Shown piece by piece: positions 41,334 to 62,786 of a stretch of DNA of 64,000 bases (position 1 is its first letter; each line of letters opens with the position of its first letter). A program made the position numbers and the translations under genes. Where the stretch lies: contig JBBRLS010000018.1 in assembly GCA_038231215.1 (NCBI GenBank), forward strand, positions 3,832 to 67,831, written 5' to 3'. Below the pieces are notes generated by a model that did no database searches, had not been told where the DNA came from, and saw nothing but the letters and a program-made list of their open reading frames with translations. The stretch is from Burkholderiales bacterium. GTDB lineage: Bacteria; Pseudomonadota; Gammaproteobacteria; Burkholderiales; Burkholderiaceae_C.

Positions 41334-41341
41334 CCAGCTGC

Positions 41342-41412: not shown

Positions 41413-41421
41413 ATGAGATGT

Positions 41422-42885
41422 TCAGCGGCCCGACCGCGCCGCCAGCTTCATGCGCAGGCCGACCGGAAACATCGCAAACGCCAGCCGCTCGGCCGGCGCC
41501 TTGCCCGACTCGGTGCCGACGTCCACGAGCGTGTAGTTGCGCGCGATCAGCGAGAGCACCATCTTCATCTCCAGCAGCGCCAGGTAGCGGCCGGGGCAGA
41601 GCCGCGGGCCGCCGCCGAAGGGCATGGAGGCGCGATTCAGTGCGCGTGTGCTTTCGGCGCCGCCGTCGAGCCAGCGCGCGGGCCGGAACTCGGCGGCATC
41701 GCTGCCCAAGGTCGCCGTGTCGATCGCGGGCTTGCGCATGACGCAGAAGACGATCGTGCCTTTGCGTATCGGCATGCCGGCGAGCGTCGAGTCGCGATTC
41801 GACTCGACGAAGATGAGCGGCGCGACCGGACGCAGGCGCATCGCCTCGTGAATGCATGCATCGACGTAGTCGAGCCCGCGCGCTCGGTCGAAGTCGTGCA
41901 GCACGCGTTCGTCGCCCAGCGTCGCGTCGACCTCGTCGACCAGCCTTTGCCACGCGTCGCGATCGCGGTGCAGCAGATAGAGCGCCCAGCCGAGCGTGTT
42001 GGCGGTGGTGTCTTCGCCGCCCAGCAGCACGGTCAGCACGTTGCCGGCGATCTGCGCCTCGCTGAGGGCGCTGCCGTCGGCGTCGCGTGCGGCAAGCAAG
42101 GCCTCGAGAAGATTGGGCGGCTTGGCGGCGCGCTCGGGCTCGGCCGCCATGCGCGTGCGCGCCTCCTCGACGAAGCCGCGCACCGCCTTGTGCACCTCGG
42201 CGAGGTGACGATCGAAGTCGCGGTCGATCGGCAGGCGGACGTGGCGCCAGTAAGGGAATGGCATGTTGATGCGCCGATAGATCATCGGGAAGACCTTGTC
42301 GAGGTGCGCTTGCAGCACGTCGTGGCCGGCCTCGATGGTGTTGACGTCGGAACCGAAGGCGAGGCCCGCCGTCACGTCGACGGTGTAGCGCATGAGCTGC
42401 GCCTGCAGGTCGATCGCCTCGCCGCTTTGCGCCGCGGCGCCGAGGCGGCGGTCGAAGCGCTCGGTGACGCGGACCAGCGACGGAAAGAAGCGCGCCAGGT
42501 GACCCGGGTCGAAGGCCGACATGACGAGCCGGCGCTGCCGCCGCCAGTCGTCGCCTTCGGCGGTGAAGACGCCGTCGCCGCCCATTTCCTTGATGACCGA
42601 GCCGACGACGCCGATGCGCTTCCAGCCGTCGGGACGATCGCGCAGCAGGCCGGCGATGAGCGGGCCGTCGGCGAGCACGACGATGGGCCGGCCGCCGAGC
42701 GTGAGGCGGTAGAGCGGGCCGTACTCGTCGGCCCATCGCTCCAGCCGCTCGTGCATGCGCGGCAGGTCGAGTTGCGGCAGGTTGCCGAGCACGGGCCAGG
42801 GGCGCGGGCCGCGCAGGTCCTTCAGCGATCGCGGCGCAGGCGCGCGCGCTGGCTCGGCGGCGGCCTCGGTCGACATGTGCTCCAT
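41422..42885 (-). CDS. Cytochrome P450
   Basis: GPRPWPVLGNL, I-helix GGEDTT, EAMR (ExxR) and heme motif FGGGPRLCPG. Confidence 0.93.
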   Translation of the reverse strand: MEHMSTEAAAEPARAPAPRSLKDLRGPRPWPVLGNLPQLDLPRMHERLERWADEYGPLYRLTLGGRPIVVLADGPLIAGLLRDRPDGWKRIGVVGSVIKEMGGDGVFTAEGDDWRRQRRLVMSAFDPGHLARFFPSLVRVTERFDRRLGAAAQSGEAIDLQAQLMRYTVDVTAGLAFGSDVNTIEAGHDVLQAHLDKVFPMIYRRINMPFPYWRHVRLPIDRDFDRHLAEVHKAVRGFVEEARTRMAAEPERAAKPPNLLEALLAARDADGSALSEAQIAGNVLTVLLGGEDTTANTLGWALYLLHRDRDAWQRLVDEVDATLGDERVLHDFDRARGLDYVDACIHEAMRLRPVAPLIFVESNRDSTLAGMPIRKGTIVFCVMRKPAIDTATLGSDAAEFRPARWLDGGAESTRALNRASMPFGGGPRLCPGRYLALLEMKMVLSLIARNYTLVDVGTESGKAPAERLAFAMFPVGLRMKLAARSGR

Positions 42886-47466: not shown

Positions 47467-48407
47467 GCGCCTTTCCTTCGAAGGTCACGCTGGTCGACGT
47501 CGGGCCGCGCGACGGGCTGCAGAACGAGAAGCAGAACGTCGACGCGGCGGTCAAGATCGAGCTCGTGCATCGCCTGCAGGCGGCCGGCCTGCGCGAGATC
47601 GAGGTGACGAGCTTCGTCAGCCCGAAGTGGGTGCCGCAGATGGCCGACAACGTCGCGGTCCTCGCCGGCATCGCCAGGAAGCCCGGCGTTCGCTACTCGG
47701 TGCTGGTGCCGAACATGAAGGGGCTCGACGCCGCGCTTTCGGCGCCGCGCGCGCTGTGGCCCGACGAGATCGTCGTCTTCGGCGCGGCGACCGAAGCCTT
47801 CAGCCATCGCAACATCAACTGCTCGATCGCCGAGAGCGTCGAGCGCTTCCGGCCGGTCGTCGCCGCCGCTCACGCGCACGGCATCAAGGTGCGCGGCGCC
47901 GTCTCGGTGGCGCTCGGCTGCCCGTACCAGGGCGAGGTGAGTGCCGACGAGGTCGAGCACATCGTCAGGCTGATGAAGGAGATCGGCGTCGACCACTGCG
48001 GCATCGCCGACACGATCGGCGTCGGCACACCGAAGAAGGTACAGGCCGCGATGGAGCGAGCGCTGCGCCACTACCCGATCGCCGAGGTGAGCGGCCATTT
48101 CCACGACACCTATGCGCAGGCGGTGGGCAACGTCTACGCCGCGCTCGAGGTCGGCATCGCCACCTTCGACGCCAGCGTCGCCGGTCTCGGCGGCTGCCCG
48201 TACGCGAAGGGCGCGACCGGCAACGTCGCGACCGAGGACGTGCTGTTCCTGCTGAACGGGCTGGGCATCGAGACGGGCGTGTCGATCGATGGCGTGATCG
48301 ATGCGGCTGCGTTCATTTCCGGCGTGCTGGGCAGGAAGCCGGTCTCGCGCTCGGCGAACGCGTTGCTCGCCAAGCGCGCCGCAGCGGCCGAGAAGGCAAC
48401 CGTCTAG
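47463..48407 (+). CDS. liuE: Hydroxymethylglutaryl-CoA lyase
   Basis: VGPRDGLQNE, ADTIG, HFHDT and GLGGCPYAKGATGN. Confidence 0.93.
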   Translation: MSAFPSKVTLVDVGPRDGLQNEKQNVDAAVKIELVHRLQAAGLREIEVTSFVSPKWVPQMADNVAVLAGIARKPGVRYSVLVPNMKGLDAALSAPRALWPDEIVVFGAATEAFSHRNINCSIAESVERFRPVVAAAHAHGIKVRGAVSVALGCPYQGEVSADEVEHIVRLMKEIGVDHCGIADTIGVGTPKKVQAAMERALRHYPIAEVSGHFHDTYAQAVGNVYAALEVGIATFDASVAGLGGCPYAKGATGNVATEDVLFLLNGLGIETGVSIDGVIDAAAFISGVLGRKPVSRSANALLAKRAAAAEKATV

Positions 48408-51400
48408 CTCCAGTCGCGCAGCGCCCGATGCGTCGGGTTGCGCTGCAGGAAGCTGTCGCGAAACTCGGGCGGCATTGCGTCTTCCGCGCGCGCGGCGATC
48501 CAGGCGGCGGCAGCCTTGGCGCGGGCCAGCGCCTCGGCCTCTCGACCGACGGCACGCAGCGCCTGCGCAAGCCACAGTGTGCATTGGGGAAGCGCCGCGC
48601 CGATCGGCCACTCCGCCATCGCTCGCTCCGTCTCGGCGATGCCGGCAGCGGCCGCGATCGCGTCGCCCTCCAGCGCCGAAAGCCAGCAGCGCAACGCGTA
48701 GAGCGGAAGGAGTTGCTCGCGCAGGCCTTCCGACTCGCATCGGTCGATGAGGACGCTGCATTGCGCTGCGCGAAGCTCGGGGCGGACCGCCTTGCCCGCA
48801 GTCAGCACCAGCTCGCATGCGACGAGCAGGTTTTCGGAATCGAGCGCCGACGACACCGCCGCCACGGCATCGATGGCGCCACCGGTCGCAAGCCGGTACG
48901 CCCAGCGCAGCGCAAGCGCGCGCTCGCGCAAACGCGCGAACTGGGCGGCAGCGGCGAAGGCCTCGACGTATCGATGCGCGAGGTCCGGTCGGCCGAGGTC
49001 GAGATAGATCTCGGCGAGCGCGCTCGCCAGCCGCTGGTGCGTGTCGCCCTGCTCGGCGACGCGCTGCCGGTTTTCCTCGATCACCGCCAGGGCCTCGTGC
49101 CAACGTGCGCCGCGCCGATGCACGTCGGCGAGGATGTACACGGTACTGACGAAATTGACGGCCATCATGTCGGTACCGCGCAGCGCCTCGAGAGCGCGGC
49201 GGGCCGTCTTGCAGGCGACATCGAACTTGCCGAGGTGCGACTGGCAGAGCGCCTGCCGCGAACAGAGCATCGGCAGGGCCGACGACGAGCCCGACGCGAG
49301 CGAAGCCAGCCAGGCCTGCTGTCGGGCCAGCGCCTGTCGCGCCCGGCCGGCCCAGAGCATCACGAGGTCGGTGCTTTGCTCGATGTCGATGGCGCGGCTC
49401 TCGCGACCGATGCGCCGGTGGACCTCGGCGGCCGCGGTGAAGCGGGACGCCGCGTCGTGCAACCTGCCGGCATAGGCATCGTGAACGCCCTGGCTGAACC
49501 TGCACTCCGCCTCGATGAGGTCGTCGCCGGCCTCGATGGCCATCGCCAGCGTCTCATCGAGTATCGGCAGGAAGTCTTCGAGGTCGCCGCGCTCGTGCCG
49601 GGCGACGAGGCGAAAGTAGGCGAGGCGAATGCGCTGCGACGCGGTGTGCGCGAGCGGCGCGAGGCGCTCGACGGACTCATCGAAGGCCGCCATCGGACCG
49701 AGCTCGGTCATCGCCTCGGTGCAGTCGAACAGCAGGTCGAAGGCGGCGTCGGACTGGCCGCGCAACAACTCGATCGAGGCGGCGCGGAAGTAGGCTTCGC
49801 GGACTTCGCGGCTGCGCCCGAGCTGCCACGCCTGCCGCGCCGCGGCGGCGAGGTGAGGGATCGCGGCGGCCTCGTCGCCGGCGCTGAGCAGATGGTGGGC
49901 GAGGCGCGCCGGTCCGGCGCCGCGCTGCGCGAGATGGACCGCGACACGTCCGTGCAGCACGCGGGCGATCGGCTCCGGCAAGAGGCGCTGCGCCGCTTCG
50001 CCGATCAGGTCGTGCATGAAGCCGCGTGAATCGAGCAGGCCGAGGCGTTCGAGCGCGTGCCACGCGTCAGCGAGCTCGAGGACATCGCGCCGGCTCACCG
50101 CCGCCGCCAGCTCGGGATCGAACTCGTGGCCGGCGACAGCGGCGATGCGCACGACGAGCAGCCCATCGGCCGGCAGCGCCGTCAAGCGCTGCTCGAGCAG
50201 CTCGGCGACGCGTGCGGGCGCCTCAAGTGCGTCGGCACGCAGCTGGCCGTGCTTCTCGAGGGCGTGGCGGATCGTCTCCAGCAGGTGCAGGGGATTGCCG
50301 CCGATGCGCCGCATCAGGGCCGCCGCGACGGAGCGGGCGTCGACGAGCGGCACATGCAGGGATTCGACGAAGGGCTGCACGTCGGCGGCATCGAGCGGCA
50401 GCAAGGGCAGCGTCACGACGTCGCCGCGGCCGCCGAGCGCGGCCAGGCGCTGGGCAGCGCTCTCGCCCTGAAGCCGCGAAGCGAACGCAAAGCGAAGGCC
50501 GCCGAGGCTGGTCCGGTCGAGCAGCTCTTGCCAGAGGTCGAAGCTGGCATCGTCGGCGAACTGCAGATCGTCGAGCACGAGGGCGGAGAGGCCCTGGCCT
50601 GCCGCCGCCGCCAGCAGCTCGGTGACGACGGGCAGCGCCGACTGCACGTTCGGCGCCTGGCCTTCGCGCGGCGCGCTCATGCGCGAGAGGAAGCGCCGGT
50701 GCGCGGCGGTTGCGCCGACCGCCGGCCAGCGCTCGCGCAGGAGGTGCACGAGACGATGGACGGTCGCCAGCGGCACCTTGTCGTCGCCCGGCCGGGCACG
50801 CAGCACCAGCCGGCCCGGCTCGCTCTCGCACAGGGCGTCGAGAAGCCGGCTCTTGCCCGCGCCGGCCTCGCCCGTGAGCAGGAACACGCGTCGTGCCGCC
50901 CAGGTCGTCGCCAGCTCGGCGAGCAGCCGGTCGCGGCCGACCAGCACGGGTGGCCGCAACGCCGATGCCGGCAGCGGCTGGCCGGCGATCCAGGTGTGCG
51001 GGCGTGCTTGCTCGACGGTGTGCAGCAGGGCCAGCGTTTCCGCCGAGGGCCGCGTGCCGATCTCGTCCTTGAGCGTGCGCTCGCAGTGATCGAAGGCGAG
51101 CAGGGCGGCGGAGCGGTCGCCGCGCAGATAGTGCAGGCGCATCAGGTGGCGATGCGCGGCTTCGCTCAAGGGGTCGAGCTGCAACAGGGTCTGCGCCACG
51201 GGCAGCGCGGCGGCGAGCTCGCCGGCGCTTTCGAGAGCGCTGACCTGCGCCTCGAGGTCGCGCCGCTGACCGGTGAGGCGGCGCTCGCGCTGCTCGTGCA
51301 GCCAGCGGTTCAGGTCGGGTGCATCGGGGAACTGCAGGTCGCCGAGCACACCGACTTCGGCGTCCAGATCGTGATGCACGGCTTCGCCGAGACGCAGCGC

Positions 51401-51637
51401 GCTGCCACCGCTGACCAGCTCGCCGCAATGCTTCTTGAGGTGAAAGAGACGCTGCCGCAGCGTGTTGCGCGCCGCCTCGGGCTCGCTGCCCGGCCACAGC
51501 AACTCGGCCAGCCGGGCCCGCGGCGTCGGACCCTCGAGCGCCAGCCAGGCCAGCAGCGCCGCGTCGCGCGGGGCGAGCGCGCTGTTCGAGCCGTCGGCGA
51601 GGGTGGCCGACGCGAGGTCGACCAGGTGCAGGCGCAT
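48404..51637 (-). CDS. SARP/BTAD-domain regulator with AAA/STAND ATPase and TPR-like C-terminus
   Basis: wHTH (LLAWLALEG...LLWP...ARNTLRQRL) and BTAD (DPLSEAAHRHLMRLH...GTRPSAET). Walker A GEAGAGKS, Walker B LVLDDLQFAD, then a helical repeat tail. Confidence 0.88.
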   Translation of the reverse strand: MRLHLVDLASATLADGSNSALAPRDAALLAWLALEGPTPRARLAELLWPGSEPEAARNTLRQRLFHLKKHCGELVSGGSALRLGEAVHHDLDAEVGVLGDLQFPDAPDLNRWLHEQRERRLTGQRRDLEAQVSALESAGELAAALPVAQTLLQLDPLSEAAHRHLMRLHYLRGDRSAALLAFDHCERTLKDEIGTRPSAETLALLHTVEQARPHTWIAGQPLPASALRPPVLVGRDRLLAELATTWAARRVFLLTGEAGAGKSRLLDALCESEPGRLVLRARPGDDKVPLATVHRLVHLLRERWPAVGATAAHRRFLSRMSAPREGQAPNVQSALPVVTELLAAAAGQGLSALVLDDLQFADDASFDLWQELLDRTSLGGLRFAFASRLQGESAAQRLAALGGRGDVVTLPLLPLDAADVQPFVESLHVPLVDARSVAAALMRRIGGNPLHLLETIRHALEKHGQLRADALEAPARVAELLEQRLTALPADGLLVVRIAAVAGHEFDPELAAAVSRRDVLELADAWHALERLGLLDSRGFMHDLIGEAAQRLLPEPIARVLHGRVAVHLAQRGAGPARLAHHLLSAGDEAAAIPHLAAAARQAWQLGRSREVREAYFRAASIELLRGQSDAAFDLLFDCTEAMTELGPMAAFDESVERLAPLAHTASQRIRLAYFRLVARHERGDLEDFLPILDETLAMAIEAGDDLIEAECRFSQGVHDAYAGRLHDAASRFTAAAEVHRRIGRESRAIDIEQSTDLVMLWAGRARQALARQQAWLASLASGSSSALPMLCSRQALCQSHLGKFDVACKTARRALEALRGTDMMAVNFVSTVYILADVHRRGARWHEALAVIEENRQRVAEQGDTHQRLASALAEIYLDLGRPDLAHRYVEAFAAAAQFARLRERALALRWAYRLATGGAIDAVAAVSSALDSENLLVACELVLTAGKAVRPELRAAQCSVLIDRCESEGLREQLLPLYALRCWLSALEGDAIAAAAGIAETERAMAEWPIGAALPQCTLWLAQALRAVGREAEALARAKAAAAWIAARAEDAMPPEFRDSFLQRNPTHRALRDWS

Positions 51638-51737: not shown

Positions 51738-54176
51738 TCACGGGCACGGCACGACCGCCGGACAGAAACCGTTGAAGGTGCGCGGCGTCGTCTCCTTGCA
51801 CGAGGCGACTGCGGTGAATGTGTTGCTCGCCAGGAAGTCCGGCTGCAGATCGGCACGCCAGCCGCGATCGATGCCGAATAGTGCGCTCGAAAGGATCTCG
51901 GTGTTGGTGATGAACTGGCTCTGGGGCGGCCCGAAGATGCGGATCGCCGCGTCGTTGATGGGGACGCCGGGGAAGGGACACGAATTTCCTCCCGAAACCG
52001 ATGCGCCGCCGGCGAACTCGACCCGCACGTTCTGCATCGTGCTGCGCGGATCGACCGCGCCGGCGAAGCCGATGCCGAGCCAGTCGCCGGCCTTCGACGC
52101 GGGCCCCTGGTCGGACGTGAACACGATCTTCTGGTCGACTGCCGCTCCGCCGATCGCGATCAACGCGCCTCGGGCCGGACTGGTGCCGCTTCCCGGGTCG
52201 ACGTTGAACGTTCCGCCGGGCGGGAACTGGACGGTGACACCGGGTTCGATCGTCAGTACGGCGACCTGTCCGGCGACTTGCGAATTGATGTCCATGCGTC
52301 CGCTGTCGGCGCCGCTGCCGACGTGATACGGCACGCCGCGGTTGTGCATCGTCTGGTCGTCGACGACCGGGCCGCCCGAGCCGGCGATGGCGATCGCGTC
52401 GTGGCCGTTGCCGGTGTAGGTGCCGCTCGGCACCGAGCCGATCACCCGGGCATAGACGTGCACCGGATAGCCGGCCGAGCCGTGCACGGTGAGCTGCTGC
52501 GAGCTGGCGTCGAAGCCGACCGGCCCGTTGATGTAGACGCCCTGGCTGAGCGAGCCGCCGATGTCGACGTTGTCGACGTGGAAGCTGCCGATGAGGCTCG
52601 GGCTCTGCATGTGCAGCACCCCAGCGTAAGCGGGGTTGGTGCTGAACGGATCGCCGCCGCCGGTGAGCACCGCGTGGTTCAGCGACAGGTTGCCGCCGAG
52701 GTTGCGGATGGACGCCCAGGCCATGCCGGCGACCTTCGCCTCGAAGGTGACCGGCCGGCCCGCCGATCCGTTGGCAACCAGGCTGCCGGTCGGCGTCACC
52801 GTCACCGTGCCACCCTTGACGATGCGCACCACGGCGCACTCCTGGATCGTCACGGGGGCCGAGACGTTGATGTCGAAGGGGATGATGTGCGGGCTGCCGG
52901 CCTCGGTCCAGGTCTCGGCGGCGTTGATGCTGCCGTGCGTCGTGCCCGCGCCGGCCGGCGCCGCACAGGGCAGCACGCCGCCGACCGGGCCGCAGGTCAG
53001 GTTGAGCGTGGTGACGTCGGCGTTGCCGACGGTGCCGCTGACGAACGAGGTGCCGGCGATCGCGCCGGGGCCGGTGAAGAAGCAGGTCTGGTTGGTCGGC
53101 TGGACGCGCACGCTGATGCTGAAGCTCGTGCCGTTGATGGCGCTGGTGTCGCTGGCCGCGTAGACGAAGCTGTTGTTGGTGATCGCCGCGGTGCCGAGTT
53201 GAACGCCCAGGTTCGGCGCGAAGTAGGTCAGGTCGAGGCCGCTGCCGGTCAGGCCGGTGATCGTTCCGCCGACCGAATAGGCGGGCGGGTAGGGGCAGTC
53301 GACGACGACGTCGGCGATGTCGCTGCTGCCGATCGTGCCCGTGCCGTTCGTGACGGTGCAGGTCTGATCCGGCGTTCGCGGCTGGGCCGCGATCGTCACG
53401 TTGTAGGCGCTGCCCAACGGCAAGGCGGTGGCGAAGGCATAGGTTCCGTCGATGAAGCGCGTCAGGTCGTCGCCGCCGTTGTTCTGCAGCTTGATCCCGT
53501 TTGCCGAGTGCTGCCTAAGGCCGGTGATCGTCAGCGACACGGTGTGCGTGCCGCAGACCACGTTGACGCCATTGACGTCGGCCGCGGCGACCGTGCCGCT
53601 GCCGTTGACGACGACGCAGGTCTGCGCCGGGCCGGTCGGCTGATTGACGATCGAGACGGCGTAGACAGTGCCGGTGACGGCGCTGGTCCGGCTCGGGCCG
53701 AACACGAACGCGCCGTTGGCGTTGACCTGATCGATCGACGGCAGGCTGACGTTGTCGGCGTTGTATTGCAGCGTCAGGCCCGTGCCGGTGAGCCCGGTGA
53801 CCGTGCCGCCGACCGCGTAAGCGGTGGCGTAGGGGCAGTCGATCGCGACGTTGGTGACGTCGGCGCCGGCGATCGAGCCGCTGCCATTGGTGACCGTGCA
53901 GGTCTGGTCGGGAGCGGTCGGTTGCGACGAGACCGTCACGGCGTAGGCGGCGCCGGCGGCGAGCGCGGTCTTGAAGGCGAACGCACCGTCGCCGAACACC
54001 CTGAGGTCGTCGCCGCCGTTGTTGCGCAGGGTCGCCCCGTTGTACGACGTACGCAGGCCCGTCACGGTGACGGACACGGTGTGCGTCGAGGTGTCGGGCG
54101 TGGTGCCGCCGCCGCCGCAGGCCGAGACCAATACGAGGAGCGCCAGGGCACCGACGCAGCGAAGAACTGAAACCAT
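51738..54176 (-). CDS. Large lipoprotein with four Cys-pair beta-sandwich repeats and a C-terminal beta-helix-like domain
   Basis: Lipobox LVSAC. Four repeats of about 85-100 aa (..GTVTGL..QP..QTC..NGSG..V.C). C-terminal WTEAGSPH...TFEAK and VTVQF...IVFTS segments. Confidence 0.85.
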   Translation of the reverse strand: MVSVLRCVGALALLVLVSACGGGGTTPDTSTHTVSVTVTGLRTSYNGATLRNNGGDDLRVFGDGAFAFKTALAAGAAYAVTVSSQPTAPDQTCTVTNGSGSIAGADVTNVAIDCPYATAYAVGGTVTGLTGTGLTLQYNADNVSLPSIDQVNANGAFVFGPSRTSAVTGTVYAVSIVNQPTGPAQTCVVVNGSGTVAAADVNGVNVVCGTHTVSLTITGLRQHSANGIKLQNNGGDDLTRFIDGTYAFATALPLGSAYNVTIAAQPRTPDQTCTVTNGTGTIGSSDIADVVVDCPYPPAYSVGGTITGLTGSGLDLTYFAPNLGVQLGTAAITNNSFVYAASDTSAINGTSFSISVRVQPTNQTCFFTGPGAIAGTSFVSGTVGNADVTTLNLTCGPVGGVLPCAAPAGAGTTHGSINAAETWTEAGSPHIIPFDINVSAPVTIQECAVVRIVKGGTVTVTPTGSLVANGSAGRPVTFEAKVAGMAWASIRNLGGNLSLNHAVLTGGGDPFSTNPAYAGVLHMQSPSLIGSFHVDNVDIGGSLSQGVYINGPVGFDASSQQLTVHGSAGYPVHVYARVIGSVPSGTYTGNGHDAIAIAGSGGPVVDDQTMHNRGVPYHVGSGADSGRMDINSQVAGQVAVLTIEPGVTVQFPPGGTFNVDPGSGTSPARGALIAIGGAAVDQKIVFTSDQGPASKAGDWLGIGFAGAVDPRSTMQNVRVEFAGGASVSGGNSCPFPGVPINDAAIRIFGPPQSQFITNTEILSSALFGIDRGWRADLQPDFLASNTFTAVASCKETTPRTFNGFCPAVVPCP

Positions 54177-54226
54177 GACCGACTCCCCTCGGGAACGTCC
54201 CCGAAGGAAGAGGTTGTAGGCAACGC

Positions 54227-54246
54227 GCCGTTATGAAAGCGTTAGG
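54227..54246 (-). promoter_or_regulatory. 11-bp-period direct repeat box upstream of the 812-aa lipoprotein
   Basis: Coding strand CCTAACGCTTT CATAACGGC; TACAAC lies 8 nt downstream. Confidence 0.5.
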
Positions 54247-54355
54247 TCGGACGGCGCGGCGCGAGCGAGGCGGTCGGGTTCGGCCTCGGCTCGGGGTCGA
54301 AGCCGGACAGCGTTCGCGACGTGGGCGCGGCGACGCCTGGCAGTCGATAGGCGAC

Positions 54356-54595
54356 CTACATCTCCCGGGTGCTGGGCAGAAAGCCGGTGTCGCGCTCGAC
54401 TGACGCCTTGCTTGCCAGCCGAGCGGCATCGGTCTGATCATCGACGCCGGTGCCCGCCTCGGCGAAGTGGCGAGCGAGATCCGCCGCCGTGTGAAAGAGA
54501 TGCGGCTCTTCCTCGTCGAGACGACGCGCGGTGGCGCGAAAAGTCCCGTGCTCATGCCACAAGCGAACGAGGTACACAGTGGCATCGTTGTTCAT
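54356..54595 (-). CDS. Small hypothetical protein (79 aa, YLVRLW motif)
   Basis: AGGAGA RBS. MNNDATVYLVRLWHEHGTFRATARRLDEEEPHLFHTAADLARHF. Confidence 0.75.
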   Translation of the reverse strand: MNNDATVYLVRLWHEHGTFRATARRLDEEEPHLFHTAADLARHFAEAGTGVDDQTDAARLASKASVERDTGFLPSTREM

Positions 54596-54692
54596 GCTTC
54601 TCCTGATGCAGAGATGGTGCGCATCGTGGATCTCTTCGAGTCAAGGACGCTGTCGGGGCAATGCAGCCCTGATGACATCACTCTGAGTGGAG

Positions 54693-54712
54693 GGCGTTTC
54701 CTTGGCGTTTCC
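54693..54712 (-). promoter_or_regulatory. 11-bp-period direct repeat box upstream of the 79-aa gene
   Basis: Coding strand GGAAACGCCAA GGAAACGCC; CAGAGT lies 7 nt downstream. Confidence 0.6.
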
Positions 54713-54763
54713 CGACACCGCGGCGGATCGTCCGATCGCGCTGTCGCGAACCAGGCCCGACCT

Positions 54764-57700
54764 CTAGCGCGACGTTGCCGGATCGTTCAGAGCGAGCAGG
54801 AACTCGTCGATCGTGCAGGCATCGACCGCTCCGGCGTGCGGTGTGCCGCTCGTCAGGCGTTCGGCGCGTTCCGCTGCATCACGGCGGGTCGGCACGTCGA
54901 GGCCGGGATCCTGCGCGACCATGCGCAACAAGCGCGCGGCAGCGAGTGGCTCGTTGCGGGCGACGAGCCACTCGGCATAGGCCGAAGCCCCGTACAGCAC
55001 GTCTTGCGGGGAGCGACGTTCGGCCGCGGCTCGCACGACGTCGCGCAATCGAGCCAGTGCGGCTTCGTGCTCGCCCTCGGCGATGTCGATGCGCGCCAGG
55101 CCGATGGAAGAGGATGACTCCATCGGCCACGCGCCCGACTCCCGACTCCATGCTTGGCTCGACGAGAAATGCTCACGTGCCTGTGCCAGCAGGCCGAGGT
55201 TGCGGCAGACCCGGCCCATGTTCAGCTCGATGTAGCGTCCTATGGAATCGATACCGAAGGCTGCGCAGTGACGCAAGCCGTCTCCCAGGGTCAAGCGCGC
55301 GGCGTCGAATTCCCGACAGGCGTTCTGCAGATTGCCCAGGTTGGTGAGGTTGATCGCGACGTTGTACTGGTCGCCGAGCTCGCGCATGATCTCGAGCGCG
55401 AGCGTCAAGTCCGCCCTCGATTCTTCGAGGCGACCCAGGACCTGCAGCGCGACGCCCCTGTTCCCGAGCGCCCAGCCGACGCTGTGACGATCTTCGCAGG
55501 CCGTGGCGACGCGCAGCCCCTCTTCGAAGCGCTCCAGGGCCAGCGCGTTGTCGCCGAGTGTGTAGTGCGCCATGCCCGTGTTGAGGATGCAGCCGACCCA
55601 GGCTTCGCTGTCGTCGCCTTTCTCCGCAAGGGCAATGCCGGCCTGCGCGACATCCAACGCTTCGCTCAACTCGCCGCTGCGGTGCAGCAGCATCGACAAC
55701 CCATGCCGCGAACGCGAAATCGCCCGGTTCGCAGACGTCGAACCACTCGCAATCGCCAAGGCAGGCCGCAGTTCGCGGATGCCTTCGGGCAGCCGTCCCT
55801 GGTTCTCGAAAAAAGACCAGAGCGCTCGCACCATGTCACCCACCAGGTCAATACGTCCCATGGCGAGGGCGCGCCGCCAGGCGGTGATGTGGTTTGCTAA
55901 CTCGCCGATGACGCCGCGCACGAGCAAGCGCTGGTCGCCGATGGCGTGCGGCGCAAGCTCGGCCAGTTCGCGCGCGAAGTATTCCGTGTGCCGGCGGTGT
56001 ACATCGTGTGCCCGGGAAGGCTCGTCGGCGAGGCGTGCCGCAGCATAGGCGGCGATCGTCGGGTGCAGTGTGAAGCGCCCGTCCGCGCCGCCGCCGACCA
56101 GGCTGCGGTCGACCAACGACGACAGCAGCGGCAGCGCCACCTCGCATGCCGAACGTGCGGCGCGATGCGTGAAGCCGCCTTCGAAGATCGATAGCGCGGC
56201 GAGTGCGCGCCTCTCGGCGTCGGCCAGCAAGCTGAAGCTGCGATCGAGGACGGCGCGCAGGCTCGCGTGTTCAGGTCGGGCAGCGACGACGGTGCTTGTC
56301 GGATCGCGCTCGAGGGCGTCGATCGAGCGACCGAGGTCGCTGGCTATTTCCTCGGGTGGCAGCAGACGTACCCAGGCCGCCGCGAGCTCGATCGCCAGCG
56401 GCAGGCCGTCGACCGCTTCGACGATGTCGATCACGGCGGCGAGGTGGCGACGCAGGTCGAAGCCGCGCAAAGCCGCACGAGCGCGCGTGTCGAAGAGCCG
56501 CACGGCGTCGAAGCTCGGCGCCACGTCGAAGTCGCGGCTGAGCGCGTCGGGTACAGCCAGGCCGTGCAGGCGCATCGGCCATTCGTCGCGACAGCGGGTG
56601 AGCGTGCGCGAGGTGAGAAGGACGCACGCGCCGGGCGCGGCGGCGAGCAGCCGGTCGAGGAAGAGCGGCAGTCCGTCGAGGTGCTCGCCGTTGTCGAGGA
56701 CGAGCAGGTTGCGGGTCGGCGGCAATCGCCGTGATACCTGCTCGAGCGGATCTTCGCCGGCCCGCAACTCCAGGCCGAGTTGCCCGGCGAGCCGCGCGAC
56801 AACAGCGGATACGTCGATCAGGTCCTGAAGGTCGGTCCAGCGTGCGCCGCCGGGAAACGACGCCCCCATCTCGGCGAGCGCCTGGCGCGCCAACCGGCTC
56901 TTGCCGACGCCGCCCGGCCCGACGAGGGTGACGAGGCGACCCTGCGGCTCCGCGAGCATGGCGCGCAACTCGGTCATCTCGGTGCGGCGGCCGATCAGGC
57001 GATCGCTCTCGTCGGGAGCTGTCTCGCGCGCCGCCGCCGGTCCCTGCGGCTCCAGGCATCTGCGCAGGCTGCTCGACGGCTCGATGCCAAGGCTTTCGGC
57101 CAGGCGAACGGCGTAGTCGTTGTAGATGCGCTGTGCGCCGGCGCCACGGCCGCCGGCCAGTTCGTCGCGGATCAGCACCTCGATCGCACTTTCGTCCAGA
57201 GCATCGCTTTCGAGCAGGCGGCGTGCCAGCGCCAGGCGTTGCGGCTGATCGGTCGAGGTGGCGAGGAGCTCGATGCAAGCCTGGCGCCATGAGGACGCCG
57301 CCTGTTCGCGCTGGCGCGCCAGCCACTCCGCCAGCGGCTCGTTGCCGACCGCGTCGATGCCCGTGCACAGCGGTGGACCGCCGATGGCGATCGCCTCGGC
57401 AAGGCGCCTTTCGCTCAGCGCTTCCCGATAAGCCGCGAGGTCGGTATCGACATGCCAGCGCAGTGCCTGTTCGCCTGCTTCCAGAGATTCCGTTCCGGGC
57501 AACTCGCGCGCACGGAAGACGACCTTGCGCAGGTTGCGGCGAGCTTCCATGGCGGGCCGGTCGGGCCAAAGCAGGCTGGCGACGAGATCCCGCTGCACCC
57601 ACTCGCCGCGATGTATCGCCAGCAGCACGAGCAGTTGATAGCGCCGCTCTGCGACGAACGGCACCGGGGCTCCGGCAACGTGCAGTGCGGGCGCTCCGAA

Positions 57701-57766
57701 CAGGAAGAGACGCGGCCTCTCCCGGCCAGGCGATGACGCCAAAGCCACCTCGACGAGATCGTGCAC
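54764..57766 (-). CDS. SARP/BTAD-domain regulator with NB-ARC-like STAND ATPase and TPRs
   Basis: wHTH (LLVLLAI...LLWP...ARRNLRK) and BTAD (LDESA...LGIEPS). Walker A GPGGVGKS, Walker B LLVLDNGEH, GLPLAIELAA, then a TPR tail. Confidence 0.9.
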   Translation of the reverse strand: MHDLVEVALASSPGRERPRLFLFGAPALHVAGAPVPFVAERRYQLLVLLAIHRGEWVQRDLVASLLWPDRPAMEARRNLRKVVFRARELPGTESLEAGEQALRWHVDTDLAAYREALSERRLAEAIAIGGPPLCTGIDAVGNEPLAEWLARQREQAASSWRQACIELLATSTDQPQRLALARRLLESDALDESAIEVLIRDELAGGRGAGAQRIYNDYAVRLAESLGIEPSSSLRRCLEPQGPAAARETAPDESDRLIGRRTEMTELRAMLAEPQGRLVTLVGPGGVGKSRLARQALAEMGASFPGGARWTDLQDLIDVSAVVARLAGQLGLELRAGEDPLEQVSRRLPPTRNLLVLDNGEHLDGLPLFLDRLLAAAPGACVLLTSRTLTRCRDEWPMRLHGLAVPDALSRDFDVAPSFDAVRLFDTRARAALRGFDLRRHLAAVIDIVEAVDGLPLAIELAAAWVRLLPPEEIASDLGRSIDALERDPTSTVVAARPEHASLRAVLDRSFSLLADAERRALAALSIFEGGFTHRAARSACEVALPLLSSLVDRSLVGGGADGRFTLHPTIAAYAAARLADEPSRAHDVHRRHTEYFARELAELAPHAIGDQRLLVRGVIGELANHITAWRRALAMGRIDLVGDMVRALWSFFENQGRLPEGIRELRPALAIASGSTSANRAISRSRHGLSMLLHRSGELSEALDVAQAGIALAEKGDDSEAWVGCILNTGMAHYTLGDNALALERFEEGLRVATACEDRHSVGWALGNRGVALQVLGRLEESRADLTLALEIMRELGDQYNVAINLTNLGNLQNACREFDAARLTLGDGLRHCAAFGIDSIGRYIELNMGRVCRNLGLLAQAREHFSSSQAWSRESGAWPMESSSSIGLARIDIAEGEHEAALARLRDVVRAAAERRSPQDVLYGASAYAEWLVARNEPLAAARLLRMVAQDPGLDVPTRRDAAERAERLTSGTPHAGAVDACTIDEFLLALNDPATSR

Positions 57767-57982
57767 GGGGCTCCCTCCCTTGGCGGCGAATGCTACGCCG
57801 CCGATGCGGTGCGCACCCGGTCATTTCGGAAGCGTGCGTCGCTACGGCGCCGGGTCGAAGTGCAAGGTGAATGCCGTTCCCGTGCCGACCATGCGCCCGC
57901 TGCCGTTGGACACCTGCCACTGCATCTGCAATCGCTCTCCGGCGGCCATACGAGTCGTGGTGCATGCTTGCATGACGCTTGA

Positions 57983-58144
57983 GGCGCCGGTGGCCGCGTG
58001 GTCGAAGGTGCGGGATCGGCGGTGACCTTCGAGTTCGGCGGTCGCAGGATGACGCTTCATCGTCCCCACCCGCGCAAGGAGGCCCTGCGATATCGGGTGC
58101 TGGCGGTTCGGGAGTTCGTCGAACGAATGGGGATCAAACCATGA
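57983..58144 (+). pseudogene. hicA: 5'-truncated HicA toxin remnant
   Basis: Hand translation GAGGRVVEGAGSAVTFEFGGRRMTLHRPHPRKEALRYRVLAVREFVERMGIKP*. The stop overlaps the hicB ATG; an in-frame TGA sits at 57980. Confidence 0.7.
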
Positions 58145-58497
58145 GCAACGCAATGACCTACAAGGGCTACACGGCGTCGATGGTCTTCGATGCCGAAGAC
58201 AAGATCATCGTCGGCCGGGTCCTCGATGTCGACGACATCATCTCGTTTCACGGCGAGACCGTGGCCGAGTTCGAAGCGACGTTCCACGCTTGCGTCGACG
58301 CTTACATCGCTGCGTCCCGTGAACTCGGAACGGCGCCGGAGAAACCGGCCAGCGGCAGGCTCATGCTCCGGATCGCCCCCGAAGTTCATGCCGCCGCGCT
58401 CAAGGCCGCAGCCGCCAGCGGCACCAGCTTGAACAAGTGGGCCGAGAAGACGCTTCGGGTCGCCGCGCGCCGCAGGGGAGCCGTTTCCGCCGCTTGA
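58141..58497 (+). CDS. hicB: HicB family antitoxin
   Basis: MTYKGYTA...IISFHGETVAE...PEKPASGRLMLRIAPEVH. Confidence 0.9.
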   Translation: MSNAMTYKGYTASMVFDAEDKIIVGRVLDVDDIISFHGETVAEFEATFHACVDAYIAASRELGTAPEKPASGRLMLRIAPEVHAAALKAAAASGTSLNKWAEKTLRVAARRRGAVSAA

Positions 58498-58506
58498 GGG
58501 CGGCAC

Positions 58507-58535
58507 GCCTTGCTCGCCAAGCGGGCGAGCAAGGC
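58507..58535. terminator. Strong hairpin between convergent hicB and lipoprotein genes
   Basis: Perfect 12-bp stem GCCTTGCTCGCC-N5-GGCGAGCAAGGC; no clear U tract. Confidence 0.45.
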
Positions 58536-58695
58536 TGCGGCCGGCTGAGCCTTCGGTGTCGCTGACTAGGGCGCAGGCTCGAAGTGCAGGGGTCGCGGAT
58601 GACCTGTGGCGTGAGCCTTGCTCTGGGATAGCCAACCGGGGCGACCTACACCTCATCCGCTCCATGCCTGCCCAGTTCCATCCGGGAATTGCCGG

Positions 58696-60831
58696 TCAGT
58701 ACACCGGCTGTGCGGACAGATCGATATTGGTGCCGTACTGACCCCCGCGTCCGTCATCCTGCCGCCGCTCCCAACGGAAGATCAGGCCATCGCATCTGCC
58801 TTTGCCGGGATTGGCCTTCTCCGTACGGCCGCTGACTGTGTCCGTCCCACCGGCGATCGCTTTGCTTCCCGAAAAAGTGCTTCCAGAAAAAGGAGCGCCG
58901 TTGGACCAAACAATGGGGATAGAAATGCCCCCACCGTTAAATGTAAGCGTCGTTTCGGTGACGAAAGCAGGGTAGTTCGGTACGTAATACGGATTGGGAA
59001 TGGGAAAACCCGAAACGAGCGCCGTCCCCACGAAGGCGCCGACGTGATCACAGGTAATCGGCTCCGGTTTGGCGAAGTCGAGCGTGACGGTGGCGAGCAC
59101 TTCGTCGGTGATGCCGAGCAGGGCAGCGCAGGCACTGCCCGTACGTCGTATGCGCAGCATGTGCGTGCCCTGGTCGTCGGCCGCCAGGCCCGCGGCCGAG
59201 AGCAGCCCGCTCGTCGTCAGCGTGCCGAGCGCGCCGGCGAGCAAGCCCGGGCCGCTGCCGCTGACGCTGGCCACCTCGGCGTTCTCGAAGGTGACCTTGA
59301 GCGTCTCGCCACCCGCGCTGTCGCACTCCAGCGCGGCGACGCTGCCGCTCACCTGCAACGATCCGCCGCTGCGCATCGCCACCGTGGCGCTGCGCACCGG
59401 ATCGGCCGGTGCGTCGGGCAGCGCCGCGAAGCCGAGCGTCGCAGCGGCGACCGCAGCCCCCGTGCTGTCGCTGCTCTGCACGTCGATGCGCGTGCGCACG
59501 AACTGCACGTCCTGCTGCAGCACCGCAGTCGGGCCGAAGGCGTCGAGCAGGTCGGCGTACTGCACCAGCGTCGCACCGGTCTTGGCGGCGGTCCACGCCG
59601 ACTGGCGCGCCGGCATCACGGCCGGGTCGAGCAGCTGAGTCTGCAGTGTGCTCTCGTAGCCGCTCAGGTCGAGCGCGGCCGGGCGCACGCCGGCGGCAGT
59701 CGCCCGCGCGCGGCCCGAGGCGGCCTGCGCCGCGCTGGCCGCAGGGTCGGTGCTCTGCAGGGTGCGCGCCTCGCGCTTGAGCTCGCGCGCGCCGCGCACG
59801 TCGCTGGCCGGCTGCGCGATCTGCGCCGGGGTCGAGGAGCGTCCAAGGCCGGCATTGACGAGGTCGAACTCGCGCTTGACGACATTGCTGGCGGCATCGG
59901 TCGCCGAGCCGGTGCACGGCGTGCCGCCCAGCCGCATGGCGAGCGAGTCCCAGTACATGATGACGCTGACCACCGGCTTGTAGTCGCCCCAGGCGGCGAT
60001 CGACGCCGTTTGCGAGCGCGTGATCGCGGCCGCGCGTTCGCGGCAGGCGGTGTCGTGCGCTTCGCTCAGGAAGGGTTGCGCCAGTGCGATGTAGCCGTCC
60101 TCGCCGCTGCGCATGAGCAGCCCGGCGATTTGCTGCTGGCTGTAGATGGCGGCGATGAACAGGCCACGCGCTTGCAGGTCGGCGATGCTGGCCCGCGCCG
60201 CGGTCACCTGCAGGGTGATCTCGAGCCTTTGCTGGGCCGAGAGCGAGCCGGGCGGATCGGGCAGCGGGTCGTCCTGCGGGCCGGCGCGCTGCGCGTGCTT
60301 GCGGTCTGCGGCAGCCGCCCCGAGCGGCTTGAGGTTCGCACCGCCGAAGGTGACGAGCGTGGCGGTGAGCGTGCGCGCCGACTTGTCGACCACCGTGGGT
60401 GCGTAGGCGCCCGCGCCGCCGATGTCCTGGCGCAGCGACGCCAGCGCGTCGGGCGTGATGCCGGCGGGCAGCTCCATCGTCACCGTCACCGGCCTGGCGA
60501 AGACCAGGCTGCCGGGCTCGAGCTTGAGGCTGACGAAGTCGCCCGCGACGGGCGCCACGGGCGTGACCTTGACGAGCGTGTCGGCACTCAGCGCGCCGGC
60601 GGGGAACGCGAAGTGCACCTTGACGCCGAGCGTGGTCGCATCGAGCGTGCCGCCGGCCGCGCCCACGGTCTGCGTCACCGGGTCGCCGAGCGGGCCGCTC
60701 AGCTTGACCGCCTGGGGCGTGGCCGGAGCCACGTAGTCGCCGCCGCCGCAGGCGGCCAGGGCGAGGGCGGCGAGCAGCGCTGCCGCCCGTGCAATGAACC
60801 GATGCGCCTTGCGGCCCTGAAGATCGCCCAT
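58696..60831 (-). CDS. Large lipoprotein with N-terminal ZU5-like domain
   Basis: Lipobox LAAC and AGGAGG RBS. TVGAAGGTL...FPAGAL...LEPGSLVFARPVTV is a ZU5-like pattern, followed by a helical middle and beta-rich C-terminus. Confidence 0.8.
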   Translation of the reverse strand: MGDLQGRKAHRFIARAAALLAALALAACGGGDYVAPATPQAVKLSGPLGDPVTQTVGAAGGTLDATTLGVKVHFAFPAGALSADTLVKVTPVAPVAGDFVSLKLEPGSLVFARPVTVTMELPAGITPDALASLRQDIGGAGAYAPTVVDKSARTLTATLVTFGGANLKPLGAAAADRKHAQRAGPQDDPLPDPPGSLSAQQRLEITLQVTAARASIADLQARGLFIAAIYSQQQIAGLLMRSGEDGYIALAQPFLSEAHDTACRERAAAITRSQTASIAAWGDYKPVVSVIMYWDSLAMRLGGTPCTGSATDAASNVVKREFDLVNAGLGRSSTPAQIAQPASDVRGARELKREARTLQSTDPAASAAQAASGRARATAAGVRPAALDLSGYESTLQTQLLDPAVMPARQSAWTAAKTGATLVQYADLLDAFGPTAVLQQDVQFVRTRIDVQSSDSTGAAVAAATLGFAALPDAPADPVRSATVAMRSGGSLQVSGSVAALECDSAGGETLKVTFENAEVASVSGSGPGLLAGALGTLTTSGLLSAAGLAADDQGTHMLRIRRTGSACAALLGITDEVLATVTLDFAKPEPITCDHVGAFVGTALVSGFPIPNPYYVPNYPAFVTETTLTFNGGGISIPIVWSNGAPFSGSTFSGSKAIAGGTDTVSGRTEKANPGKGRCDGLIFRWERRQDDGRGGQYGTNIDLSAQPVY

Positions 60832-60900
60832 GATCGATGCCTCCTGTGGCGGGCTGCATCGACACTTCGCGCAGACCCTGGGACCGTACTGTCCTCAGGG

Positions 60901-60920
60901 GGCGTTTCTCGAGCGTTTCC
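60901..60920 (-). promoter_or_regulatory. 11-bp-period direct repeat box upstream of the ZU5-like lipoprotein
   Basis: Coding strand GGAAACGCTCG AGAAACGCC; GACAGT lies 7 nt downstream. Confidence 0.6.
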
Positions 60921-60932
60921 CCATCTCGCGAC

Positions 60933-61030
60933 GAGATCCTTCGCTCCGCTCAGGATGACTGTGGCTGCGCTCAGGATGACATTGGCTGCGCTCAGGAGGA
61001 CGTTGGCGGCGCTCAGGAGGACGTTGACGG
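60933..61030. repeat. REP-like half element with four 21-bp tandem units
   Basis: GAGATCCTTCGCTCCGCTCAGGATGAC, with CGCTCAGGA(T/G)GAC-N9 units at 60947, 60968, 60989 and 61010. Confidence 0.85.
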
Positions 61031-61048
61031 CGGCTTGCGCCGCCAATG

Positions 61049-61825
61049 TCACTTCTCGACGAAGGCGCGCTCGATCACGTAGGCGCCGGCCTGGCCGATG
61101 CCGGCGGAGATCGTGAAGCCGGCGGCGTCGAGCACGGCGCGCATGTCCTTCAGCATCGCCGGGCCGCCGCAGATCATGGCGCGGTCGTGCGCCGGGTCGA
61201 TCTGCGGAAAGCCGATGTCGCGGCACAGCTTGCCACTGGCGATCAGATCGGGCAGGCGGCCCTGGTGGCGGAAAGGCTCGCGCGTCACCGTCGGGTAGTA
61301 GACGAGCTTTGCGCGGACCTGGTCGCCGAGGAAATCGTCCCTTGGCAGGTCGTGGGCGATCAGGTCGTCGTAGGCCAGCTCGTCGACCTTGCGCACACCG
61401 TGCACGAGGATGATCTTCTCGAAGCGCTCGTAGGTGTCGGGGTCGCGGATGATGCTCATGAAGGGCGCCAGGCCGGTGCCGGTCGCGAACAGGTAGAGAT
61501 AGCGACCGGGCAACAGGTCGGTGAGCACCAGGGTGCCGGTGGGCTTGCGGCCGATCAGCACCTCGTCGCCGACCTTCAGGTGCTGCAGGCGCGAGGTGAG
61601 CGGCCCGTCCTGCACCTTGATGCTGAAGAACTCGAGATGCTCCGCGTAGTGCGCGCTGGCGATCGAATAGGCGCGCATCAGCGGCTTGCCGTCGACCATG
61701 ATGCCGACCATCACGAAGTGGCCGCTCTCGAAGCGCAGGCTGGCCCCGCGCGTGCAAGTGAAGGAGAAGAGCGATTCGTTCCAGTGATGGACCGAGAGAA
61801 CCTTTTGGGAGTCGAAAGCCGCCAT
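61049..61825 (-). CDS. fpr: Ferredoxin--NADP+ reductase
   Basis: VLSVHHWNESLFSF, RAYSIAS, GPLTSRL, ATGTGLAPF and MICGGP. Confidence 0.95.
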   Translation of the reverse strand: MAAFDSQKVLSVHHWNESLFSFTCTRGASLRFESGHFVMVGIMVDGKPLMRAYSIASAHYAEHLEFFSIKVQDGPLTSRLQHLKVGDEVLIGRKPTGTLVLTDLLPGRYLYLFATGTGLAPFMSIIRDPDTYERFEKIILVHGVRKVDELAYDDLIAHDLPRDDFLGDQVRAKLVYYPTVTREPFRHQGRLPDLIASGKLCRDIGFPQIDPAHDRAMICGGPAMLKDMRAVLDAAGFTISAGIGQAGAYVIERAFVEK

Positions 61826-61952
61826 GCGATGGGGAACCTCGTGATCTGCACGGACAAGGGCGCCGTGCCGATCGTCCTTCGCGCCGGTATGGCGCATGCT
61901 AGATTGTCCCTGCATTGAGGGAGGCCCTTCGTTGACGAAGGCAGGCAGCACG

Positions 61953-62786
61953 ATGACCCGTTTCGAGCGACCCGAGTCGATGGCCGAGGCGACGAGCCTG
62001 CTCGCGGCCGGCGACTGGGTGCCGCTCGCCGGCGGCACCGACCTCTACCCGGCGCAGGTCGGCCGGACGATGCCGCGACCCTTGCTCGATCTCTCCCGTG
62101 TCGCCGGGCTGCGCGGCATCCGGCAAAGCAACGACGGCTGGACGATCGGCGCGACGACGACCTGGACCGACGTCATCCGCGCCGATTTGCCGCCGCTCTT
62201 CGATGCGCTCAAGGCCGCGGCGCGCGAAGTCGGCGGCTTGCAGATCCAGAACACGGGCACGATCGCCGGCAACGTCTGCAACGCCTCGCCGGCCGCCGAC
62301 GGCATGCCGGTGCTGCTCGCGCTCGGCGCCGAGGTGGAACTGCACAGCACTCTCGGCTCGCGGCGTCTGCCGCTCGACGCCTTCGTGCTCGGCCCGCGGC
62401 GTACTGCGCGGCGCAGCGACGAGCTGGTGACGGCGTTGCACATTCCTTCCCGCAGCGCGCGGGCGAGGTCCGTGTTCGCCAAGCTCGGCGGGCGCCGCTA
62501 TCTCGTGATCTCGATCGCCATGGTCGCGGTCGTCGTAGATGTCGATGGGGGGGGCCGAGTCATCGACGCGGGCATCGCCGTCGGCAGTTGCTCGGCGGTG
62601 GCCAAGCGCCTGCCATCGCTCGAAGCGCGCCTGCTGGGACACGACGTCGCCGAGCTCGCCGACTGCGTCGAGGCCGACGACCTCGCACCGCTCACACCGA
62701 TCGACGACGTGCGGGCCAGCGCCGGGTTTCGTCTCGACGCGACGCTCACCTTGCTGCGTCGCGCTCTCGCGTCGCTCGCGCCATGA
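61953..62786 (+). CDS. Xanthine/CO dehydrogenase family FAD-binding subunit
   Basis: AGGTDL, QIQNTGTIAGN and NASPAAD. Confidence 0.9.
   Translation: MTRFERPESMAEATSLLAAGDWVPLAGGTDLYPAQVGRTMPRPLLDLSRVAGLRGIRQSNDGWTIGATTTWTDVIRADLPPLFDALKAAAREVGGLQIQNTGTIAGNVCNASPAADGMPVLLALGAEVELHSTLGSRRLPLDAFVLGPRRTARRSDELVTALHIPSRSARARSVFAKLGGRRYLVISIAMVAVVVDVDGGGRVIDAGIAVGSCSAVAKRLPSLEARLLGHDVAELADCVEADDLAPLTPIDDVRASAGFRLDATLTLLRRALASLAP

Follow-up and report, generated by a model that had tools for sequence, protein, structure and literature searches.

Tandem repeats with an 11-bp period as candidate SARP-type operators beside AfsR-like regulator genes in a Burkholderiales genome

Background

Activators of the SARP type (for Streptomyces antibiotic regulatory proteins) are central to antibiotic regulation in Streptomyces. 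The large SARP AfsR of Streptomyces coelicolor (SARP-NOD-TPR) is a protein of ~1000 amino acids (aa) in which a winged helix-turn-helix (wHTH) and a BTAD domain are followed by NB-ARC/AAA and TPR parts, and its operator consists of two 11-bp direct repeats placed over the -35 region of a promoter whose -35 is weak and whose -10 is suboptimal (PMC10936776). According to the published rule for SARP promoters, the 3' repeat lies 8 bp from the -10 and the repeats have a period of 11 or 22 bp (PMC10936776). In a 2024 review the SARPs were described as exclusive to actinobacteria (PMC10972967). Here we describe three promoter-like sites with tandem repeats in a stretch of 64,000 nt (the window) on contig JBBRLS010000018.1 of a Burkholderiales metagenome-assembled genome (MAG), together with two genes for large STAND regulators (regulators 1 and 2) and the genes behind the sites, which encode a 79-aa small protein and lipoproteins of 711 and 812 aa.

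Regulator 1 has the size and the domain order of AfsR, and AfsR is the best structural match of its modelled N-terminus, at a sequence identity of ~18%. The repeats lie over a poor -35 in both systems, while the box sequences differ. The AfsR system targets antibiotic pathways in an actinobacterium, whereas the targets other than the small protein gene are large lipoprotein genes here, in a betaproteobacterium. Small SARPs such as ActII-ORF4, DnrI and RedD share with this locus heptameric repeats, 4-nt spacers, the 8-bp distance between 3' repeat and -10 and, in some cases, a third repeat (here at the promoters C55 and C17 of the same genome), but they consist of the SARP domain only and belong to antibiotic clusters, whereas the SARP domain of this locus stands in front of a STAND ATPase, with no biosynthetic cluster next to it. 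PhoB, with its pho box, has a winged helix of the same class and also uses tandem 11-bp repeats that replace the -35; the proteins described here differ from it in lacking a receiver domain, in having a BTAD after the winged helix, and in that their control would lie with the STAND ATPase/TPR parts rather than with phosphorylation. EmbR of Mycobacterium tuberculosis shares the wHTH-BTAD fold and is the closest sequence match among solved structures, but it carries a C-terminal FHA domain, is under Ser/Thr kinase control and has no such tandem-box regulon attached. In the literature searched, we found no description of a SARP-type system of this kind outside the actinobacteria. The relatives met in this work belong to Burkholderiales, Caldimonas, Aquabacterium and betaproteobacteria and not to actinobacteria, which is a difference of distribution and not of structure. 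The comparisons presented below support SARP-type operators and an AfsR/AfsS-like module outside the actinobacteria, which would drive lipoprotein genes.

Results and discussion

Tandem repeats at three promoter-like sites

A preliminary description of this DNA had noted AACG repeats with an exact 11-bp period in front of three genes. The three repeat strings, read directly on the minus strand, are all present (Table 1), and the period is exact at the three sites as well as at every one of the 14 GAAACG and 52 TRACG sites examined; the single common box, on the other hand, resolves into two families, GAAACGS (sites 1 and 2) and TRACG (site 3), that have only an ACG core in common. The 3' repeat is followed after 8 nt by a -10-like hexamer assigned from sequence, i.e. 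GAAACGC-N8-GACAGT at site 1, GAAACGC-N8-CAGAGT at site 2 and TAACGGC-N8-TACAAC at site 3. The box-to-hexamer spacing of site 1 matches that of six class-A promoters, and CAGAGT of site 2 is also found at identical spacing in an Aquabacterium MAG locus (L083). A consensus scan predicted no sigma-70 -35/-10 promoter at any of the three sites, and the hexamer 17 nt 5' of the site 2 -10 (ACGCCA) matches TTGACA at three of six positions; no intrinsic terminator was predicted at or between the three sites on the minus strand. With no sigma-70 consensus at the sites and the 3' repeat 8 bp from the -10, the earlier suggestion that the repeats replace the -35 is supported, and the geometry of the three sites (11-bp period, 8 bp to the -10, poor -35) fits the published SARP promoter rule.

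The three repeats are real and lie far beyond chance, as judged by motif searches across the genome and in shuffled sequence. AACG-N7-AACG occurs six times in the window against 1.74 expected, a number reached by one of 100 shuffles. In the 4.5-Mb assembly GAAACG-N5-GAAACG has two matches, which are sites 1 and 2, against ~0.2 expected from composition, and both are intergenic and oriented with the downstream gene. T[AG]ACG-N6-T[AG]ACG has 16 matches in the genome, six of them with TAYAWN exactly 10 nt downstream; the hexamer appears at no other offset, save once at +21, in a three-repeat site. These six TRACG promoters all lie 60-72 nt 5' of a start codon, and five of them drive lipoprotein genes, the start downstream of the sixth (C38) being unclear. 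Among 49 genomes of the genus, TRACG-N6-TRACG-N10-TAYAW has 52 matches and the reversed-pattern control none, as against 11 and 3, respectively, in 149 genomes from the family's other genera. The two repeats are homotypic (TAACG or TGACG twice) in 51 of the 52 genus sites, as would be expected for two identical readers. In unbiased scans of this genome (G000), six of eight matches, at three of five loci, fell within 3 kb of a wHTH-BTAD gene, and such neighbourhoods make up ~1.3% of the genome by our own arithmetic.

Promoters of extracytoplasmic function (ECF) sigma factors typically have a GGAAC/GAAAC-like -35, and in sites 1 and 2 the first GGAAAC looks like such an element. It is nevertheless very improbable that the GAAAC and TGACG words are the -35 of an ECF-type sigma factor with an incidental second copy: the repeats lie ~20-21 and 9-10 nt from the conserved hexamer while 16-18 nt are needed, there is no conserved CGT-type -10 at 16-17 nt past the first repeat, and both copies are conserved and, in the 51 sites just mentioned, homotypic, which fits a dimer of identical DNA readers and not a single -35. 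An ECF-sigma promoter and the use of one repeat as a -35 were both rejected on spacing.

Chance, or the duplication of promoter DNA with no regulatory role, is a hardly credible source of the likeness of the three sites, even though the promoters C38 and C55 are paralogous and alike throughout their 5' untranslated regions (5'UTRs), the genus shows no enrichment of the bare GAAACG pattern (see below), and AACG-N7-AACG also occurs in the 3' end of the regulator 1 gene. Sites 1 and 2 are alike in the box sequence only, the spacer and flanks of orthologous promoters have diverged around a box and a -10 that are retained, the full TRACG pattern is absent from its control, and the box is found with regulators that are only 33-41% identical to regulator 1 and stand in differing gene orders. 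The copy within regulator 1 (AACGATCCGGCAACG, 54773-54787, minus strand) covers the last codons of the gene, ~60 nt 5' of site 2; no -10 stands at the spacing required, and the copy is probably a chance occurrence.

Table 1. Positions of the repeat sites, the regulator genes and the neighbouring genes in the window
Feature	Coordinates	Strand	Remarks
Site 1 operator (candidate), GAAACGC twice, 11-bp period	60902..60919 (heptamers 60919-60913, 60908-60902)	minus	5' of 711-aa lipoprotein gene
Site 1 -10-like hexamer, GACAGT	60888..60893	minus	8-nt gap from 3' heptamer; putative transcription start ~60881
Site 2 operator (candidate), GAAACGC twice	54694..54711 (heptamers 54711-54705, 54700-54694)	minus	5' of 79-aa gene
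Site 2 -10-like hexamer, CAGAGT	54680..54685	minus	8-nt gap from 3' heptamer; putative transcription start ~54673
Site 3 operator (candidate), TAACG-N6-TAACG	54229..54244 (54244-54240, 54233-54229)	minus	5' of 812-aa lipoprotein gene
Site 3 -10 hexamer, TACAAC	54213..54218	minus	10 nt past second TAACG; putative transcription start ~54206
Regulator 1, AfsR-like large SARP, wHTH-BTAD-NB-ARC/AAA-TPR	54764..57766	minus	helix AMEARRNLRKVVFRAR; Pfam, EmbR match, AF2/Foldseek
Regulator 2, BTAD-AAA_16-TPR STAND protein, SARP-type N-terminus	48404..51637	minus	helix AARNTLRQRLFHLKK; Pfam, orthologues
79-aa small protein gene	54356..54595	minus	first gene behind GAAACG box, conserved
711-aa lipoprotein gene (ZU5-like in the preliminary description)	58696..60831	minus	behind site 1
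812-aa lipoprotein gene	51738..54176	minus	behind site 3
Ferredoxin-NADP-reductase-like gene	61049-62038	minus	
HicB-family antitoxin gene	58141-58497	plus	Pfam E=3e-15; within regulator-1 module

Conservation of the boxes in related genomes

Upstream of orthologous genes the boxes are kept, the GAAACG box beside homologues of the 79-aa gene and the TAACG box beside orthologues of the 812-aa gene. GAAACG-N5-GAAACG lies 5' of all 12 clear homologues of the 79-aa gene (11 genomes, Burkholderiales MAGs), with a -10-like hexamer 9 or 10 nt downstream in every case, and an AfsR-like gene whose product is 33-48% identical to regulator 1 adjoins the box in ten of the 12 loci on the same strand or divergently, so that the box and the small gene follow the stop codon of the regulator or diverge from it in an arrangement like that of AfsR and AfsS. 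A profile of the 79-aa protein gave six strong matches in the genus, including the window's own gene, and the box is upstream of all six. When 185,579 species genomes were scanned, six further loci emerged, in Burkholderiales MAGs that carry the label Aquabacterium or 'beta proteobacterium'; each of them has GAAACG-N5-GAAACG with a -10-like hexamer, and in each a relative of regulator 1, 33-44% identical over the aligned stretches, ends just upstream.

The gene order around the box varies. In two relatives, whose loci were reached through homologues of the 711-aa protein, a regulator-1 orthologue (48%) is followed by GGGAAACGCCAAGGAAACGCC-N7-TAAGGT, the TAA of this hexamer being the regulator's own stop codon, and then by a 79-aa homologue and 711-like lipoprotein genes. 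The 711-aa homologues of G028 and G021 come after the small gene, behind a single GAAACG box, which in G028 is adjoined by a regulator-1 orthologue of 48% identity. In G025 the regulator gene diverges from the box and the small gene; in G026 a likewise divergent relative of regulator 1 faces a box that precedes a membrane-protein gene, not a small-protein gene. Two sub-classes can be told apart by spacing and helix: a 9-nt gap to nAnnGT with the helix RRNLRKV, and a 10-nt gap to TAnnnT with the helix R[SN]NLRK[VL]L. Counted from the 3' heptamer, one subclass of relatives has 9 nt, not 8, to the -10.

Site 3 is a phylogenetic footprint: of the 11 promoters of 812-aa orthologues that were aligned, nine retain YTAACGnnnTTCATAACGGC and TACAAC but vary in the 8-nt spacer, the flanks and everything upstream, and the other two have TGACG-N6-TGACG-N10-TACAAM instead. 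The 812-aa orthologues are 81-92% identical in at least ten genomes of the genus, and in five relatives an orthologue of regulator 2 (72-76% identical, aligning from MRLHLVDL) lies directly 3' of the 812-aa gene. In several relatives TAACG or TGACG boxes stand directly 5' of regulator genes, which suggests autoregulation, and in the genome of the window boxes flank or face the regulators of C3, C17, C35 and C18.

Two regulators with SARP-type N-termini

The BTAD family (PF03704) matches regulator 1 with 23.7 bits (cut-off 22.1) and regulator 2, which likely starts at the ATG at 51637, with 48.3 bits. The AAA_16 and NB-ARC scores are at or near their cut-offs, with intact Walker A sequences (GPGGVGKS; GEAGAGKS), and TPR_12 scores 78 bits in regulator 1. 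An AF2 model of residues 18-267 of regulator 1 (pLDDT 89, pTM 0.79) has as its top PDB matches in Foldseek the SARP domain of AfsR in transcription initiation complexes (8k60, 8hvr; E ~1e-8); EmbR is also among the top fold matches, which extend over ~240 residues for AfsR and EmbR, and the DNA-binding domains of OmpR/PhoB form a second tier. The genome as a whole has 11 BTAD matches, seven of them SARP-like with the LLWP...LR motif.

Over several paralogous lineages, box type and the recognition helix of the neighbouring SARP-like protein vary together. Regulator 1 and its relatives, beside GAAACG boxes, have R[RSN]NLRK[VL]. Beside TAACG boxes the helix is ARNTLRQRL in regulator 2, its orthologues and G260, ARNSLRQRL in C35 and AGNALRQRL in G263, and beside TGACG boxes it is ARANLRQRL in C3, G036 and G026 and ARGNLRQRL in C17, G032 and G031. 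The position with K in the GAAACG class and Q in the TRACG class aligns tentatively with T88 of AfsR (ungapped HMMER alignment, E=0.1), an equivalence that assumes an inferred chain-numbering offset of 20; T88 of AfsR is a base-contacting residue (PMC10936776). Synteny and the covariation of helix and box back the earlier surmise that the two kinds of box, GAAACG and TAACG, have different regulators.

The repeats could also be true operators of some other tandem-binding winged-helix protein, for instance a response regulator of the OmpR/PhoB family, with the SARP-like genes as neighbours or targets. The 11-bp direct repeats with which PhoB-type regulators replace the -35 and the second-tier fold matches would agree with such a binder, as would the box promoters C38, C55, L072 and L073, which have no SARP gene nearby. 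We consider it unlikely in view of the covariation just described, the adjacency of the regulator in same-strand and divergent arrangements alike, and the lack of any response-regulator gene conserved beside the boxes in the loci read.

Contig C15 encodes a paralogue of regulator 1 (reverse strand, open frame 39842-42835 in reverse-complement coordinates). With 963 aa aligned it is 43% identical; its recognition helix is the same (RRNLRKVVFRAH), and it sits between acyl-CoA-synthetase-like and topoisomerase-like genes, with no GAAACG box nearby.

Proposed mode of action

We propose that the three sites are probably activator-dependent promoters whose tandem repeats serve as operators for the SARP-type domains of large STAND regulators. 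The conservation of the boxes by orthologous regulators, the geometry and the SARP-type N-termini support the repeats as operators, and with the same boxes beside the same regulators in a dozen related genomes, regulation of the SARP type probably works likewise here. The sites would be sigma-70-type promoters without a usable -35, in which the operator is read by the OmpR-like winged helix and BTAD of a large STAND regulator. On the model of AfsR, a pair of SARP domains would sit side by side on the two repeats, which span about -38 to -17, overlap the -35 position and stop 8 bp short of the -10, and the bound domains would recruit RNA polymerase, while the NB-ARC/AAA and TPR parts would gate activity in response to a signal. 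In AfsR, the SARP domain is active by itself when the protein is truncated to it. Regulator 1 (helix NLRK) may read the GAAACGC boxes of sites 1 and 2 and drive the 79-aa and 711-aa genes, and regulator 2 (helix NTLRQRL) may read the TAACG box of site 3 and drive the 812-aa gene. Regulator 2 starts 100 nt past the 812-aa gene with no predicted terminator between, so it is probably co-transcribed from the TAACG promoter, and read-through from site 3 would then amount to positive autoregulation. The observation that neither regulator gene has a box of its own in front thus holds literally, with the qualification that regulator 2 probably depends on the box of site 3. The only candidate for an upstream box of regulator 1, CAAGC-N6-CAAGC near 57981, has the wrong geometry and is probably a chance occurrence. 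We infer binding, activation, transcription start sites and autoregulation throughout.

Several points weigh against the proposal that SARP-type regulators act at these sites. The -10 assignments rest on spacing and the A2/T6 pattern only, and the transcription starts follow from inference. Trans_reg_C matches regulator 1 at E=1e-3, under the Pfam cut-off, and the sequence similarity is weak, with E=5e-4 to EmbR (residues 10-87) and E=0.1 to AfsR; the winged helix of regulator 2 has no Pfam match, and only the conserved LLWP...LRQRLFHLKK motif is seen. The C15 paralogue, with its identical recognition helix, could share the GAAACG boxes, and as a binder it is indistinguishable from regulator 1. 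In the genus, bare GAAACG-N5-GAAACG shows no enrichment (29 matches, control 24), which is confined to the full architecture; about one third of the bare genus matches show the promoter architecture, and six others are an unrelated conserved element. No SARP gene lies near the TRACG-class promoters C38 and C55 or near the TGACG promoters of G015 and G012, and in G032 the available 4.2 kb of upstream sequence gave no relative of regulator 1. Many of the supporting sites are orthologous and therefore are not independent observations.

The unrelated element, GGGGAAC-GAAACGRAGCRGAAACG-ATTCCGATGCATGATAGCGACGCGC, occurs in six genomes of the genus (L016, L019, L030, L032, L038, L044; position ~1490-1550), where it explains six bare matches, and is absent from the genome of the window.

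A wider picture may be drawn, though we rate it as speculative and rather less probable than its opposite: the Burkholderiales would harbour a radiation of AfsR-like SARP-STAND sensors, each with its own tandem box set by a simple recognition code and with a dedicated surface-lipoprotein regulon, and the regulator-1 branch would act through an orphan AfsS-like relay or feedback protein of 56-90 aa. If such a code holds, at the equivalent of AfsR T88 K would stand for GAAACG and Q for TRACG, and one helical turn earlier N-T/S/A would stand for TAACG and A/G-N for TGACG. The natural series of helix and box variants could then show how SARP winged helices read DNA. The locus offers operators, regulators and targets with which SARP-type activation can be tested in Gram-negative Burkholderiales, a first regulatory context for the family of the 79-aa protein (366 clusters) and for several large lipoproteins of unknown function, and promoter motifs that can be used for annotating such regulons in MAGs.

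Target genes and 5'UTRs

The 79-aa protein belongs to a family of 366 representative clusters (E<=1e-3), mostly of 56-90 aa and unannotated, with the consensus LFxVRVW...FRASVRRVDxE...LF. It has no Pfam match; its model shows a confident beta-beta-beta-alpha core, for which there was no PDB fold match below E=0.1. A word-based homologue search returned only the protein itself, and a cluster look-up gave only 'hypothetical protein' entries from metagenomes. The gene of AfsS, a protein of 63 aa in Streptomyces, lies beside the regulator gene and is its direct target, as the small gene (56-90 aa) would be here; no relation of the small protein to known families was detected.

In the genome of the window, the box-driven genes with a clear start all encode lipoproteins with an ACGGG lipobox. 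One of them, behind a TGACG-type promoter at C3:118694 (plus strand), codes for a lipoprotein of 887 aa with the motif HEFAHVLQ (HExxH), which may be a zinc-metalloprotease lipoprotein.

The 5'UTR that follows site 3 (54177-54212, minus strand) can be folded so that CUCUUCC pairs with the GGGGAG ribosome-binding site round a short GC hairpin; covariation among the orthologues L053-L063 lends it weak support, with one compensatory pair. Similar GC hairpins lie downstream of the TGACG promoters on C3, C38 and C55.

Locus layout and an inserted module

On the minus strand the order is reductase gene, 21-bp array, site 1, 711-aa gene, (hicB), regulator 1, site 2, 79-aa gene, site 3, 812-aa gene and regulator 2, with the operator of site 2 beginning 53 nt past the stop codon of regulator 1. 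Six relatives have the reductase gene immediately before the 812-aa gene's TAACG promoter, which points to the regulator-1 module (~54250-61040, made up of hicB, regulator 1 and the genes of 711 and 79 aa) as an insertion here. G021 has the uninterrupted arrangement of reductase gene and TAACG promoter, and regulator-1 modules elsewhere in its genome.

A 31-aa open reading frame at 58049-58144 (plus strand) overlaps hicB from upstream; it may be a truncated toxin partner of HicB, as it has only 31 aa and no Pfam match. Between the stop codon of the reductase gene and site 1 lies a 21-bp tandem array (60947-61032; 4.1 copies, 90% matches), and the end of this array is a REP-like element, GTCATCCTGAGCGnAGCGAAGGATC, with ~256 copies in the genome at three or fewer mismatches.

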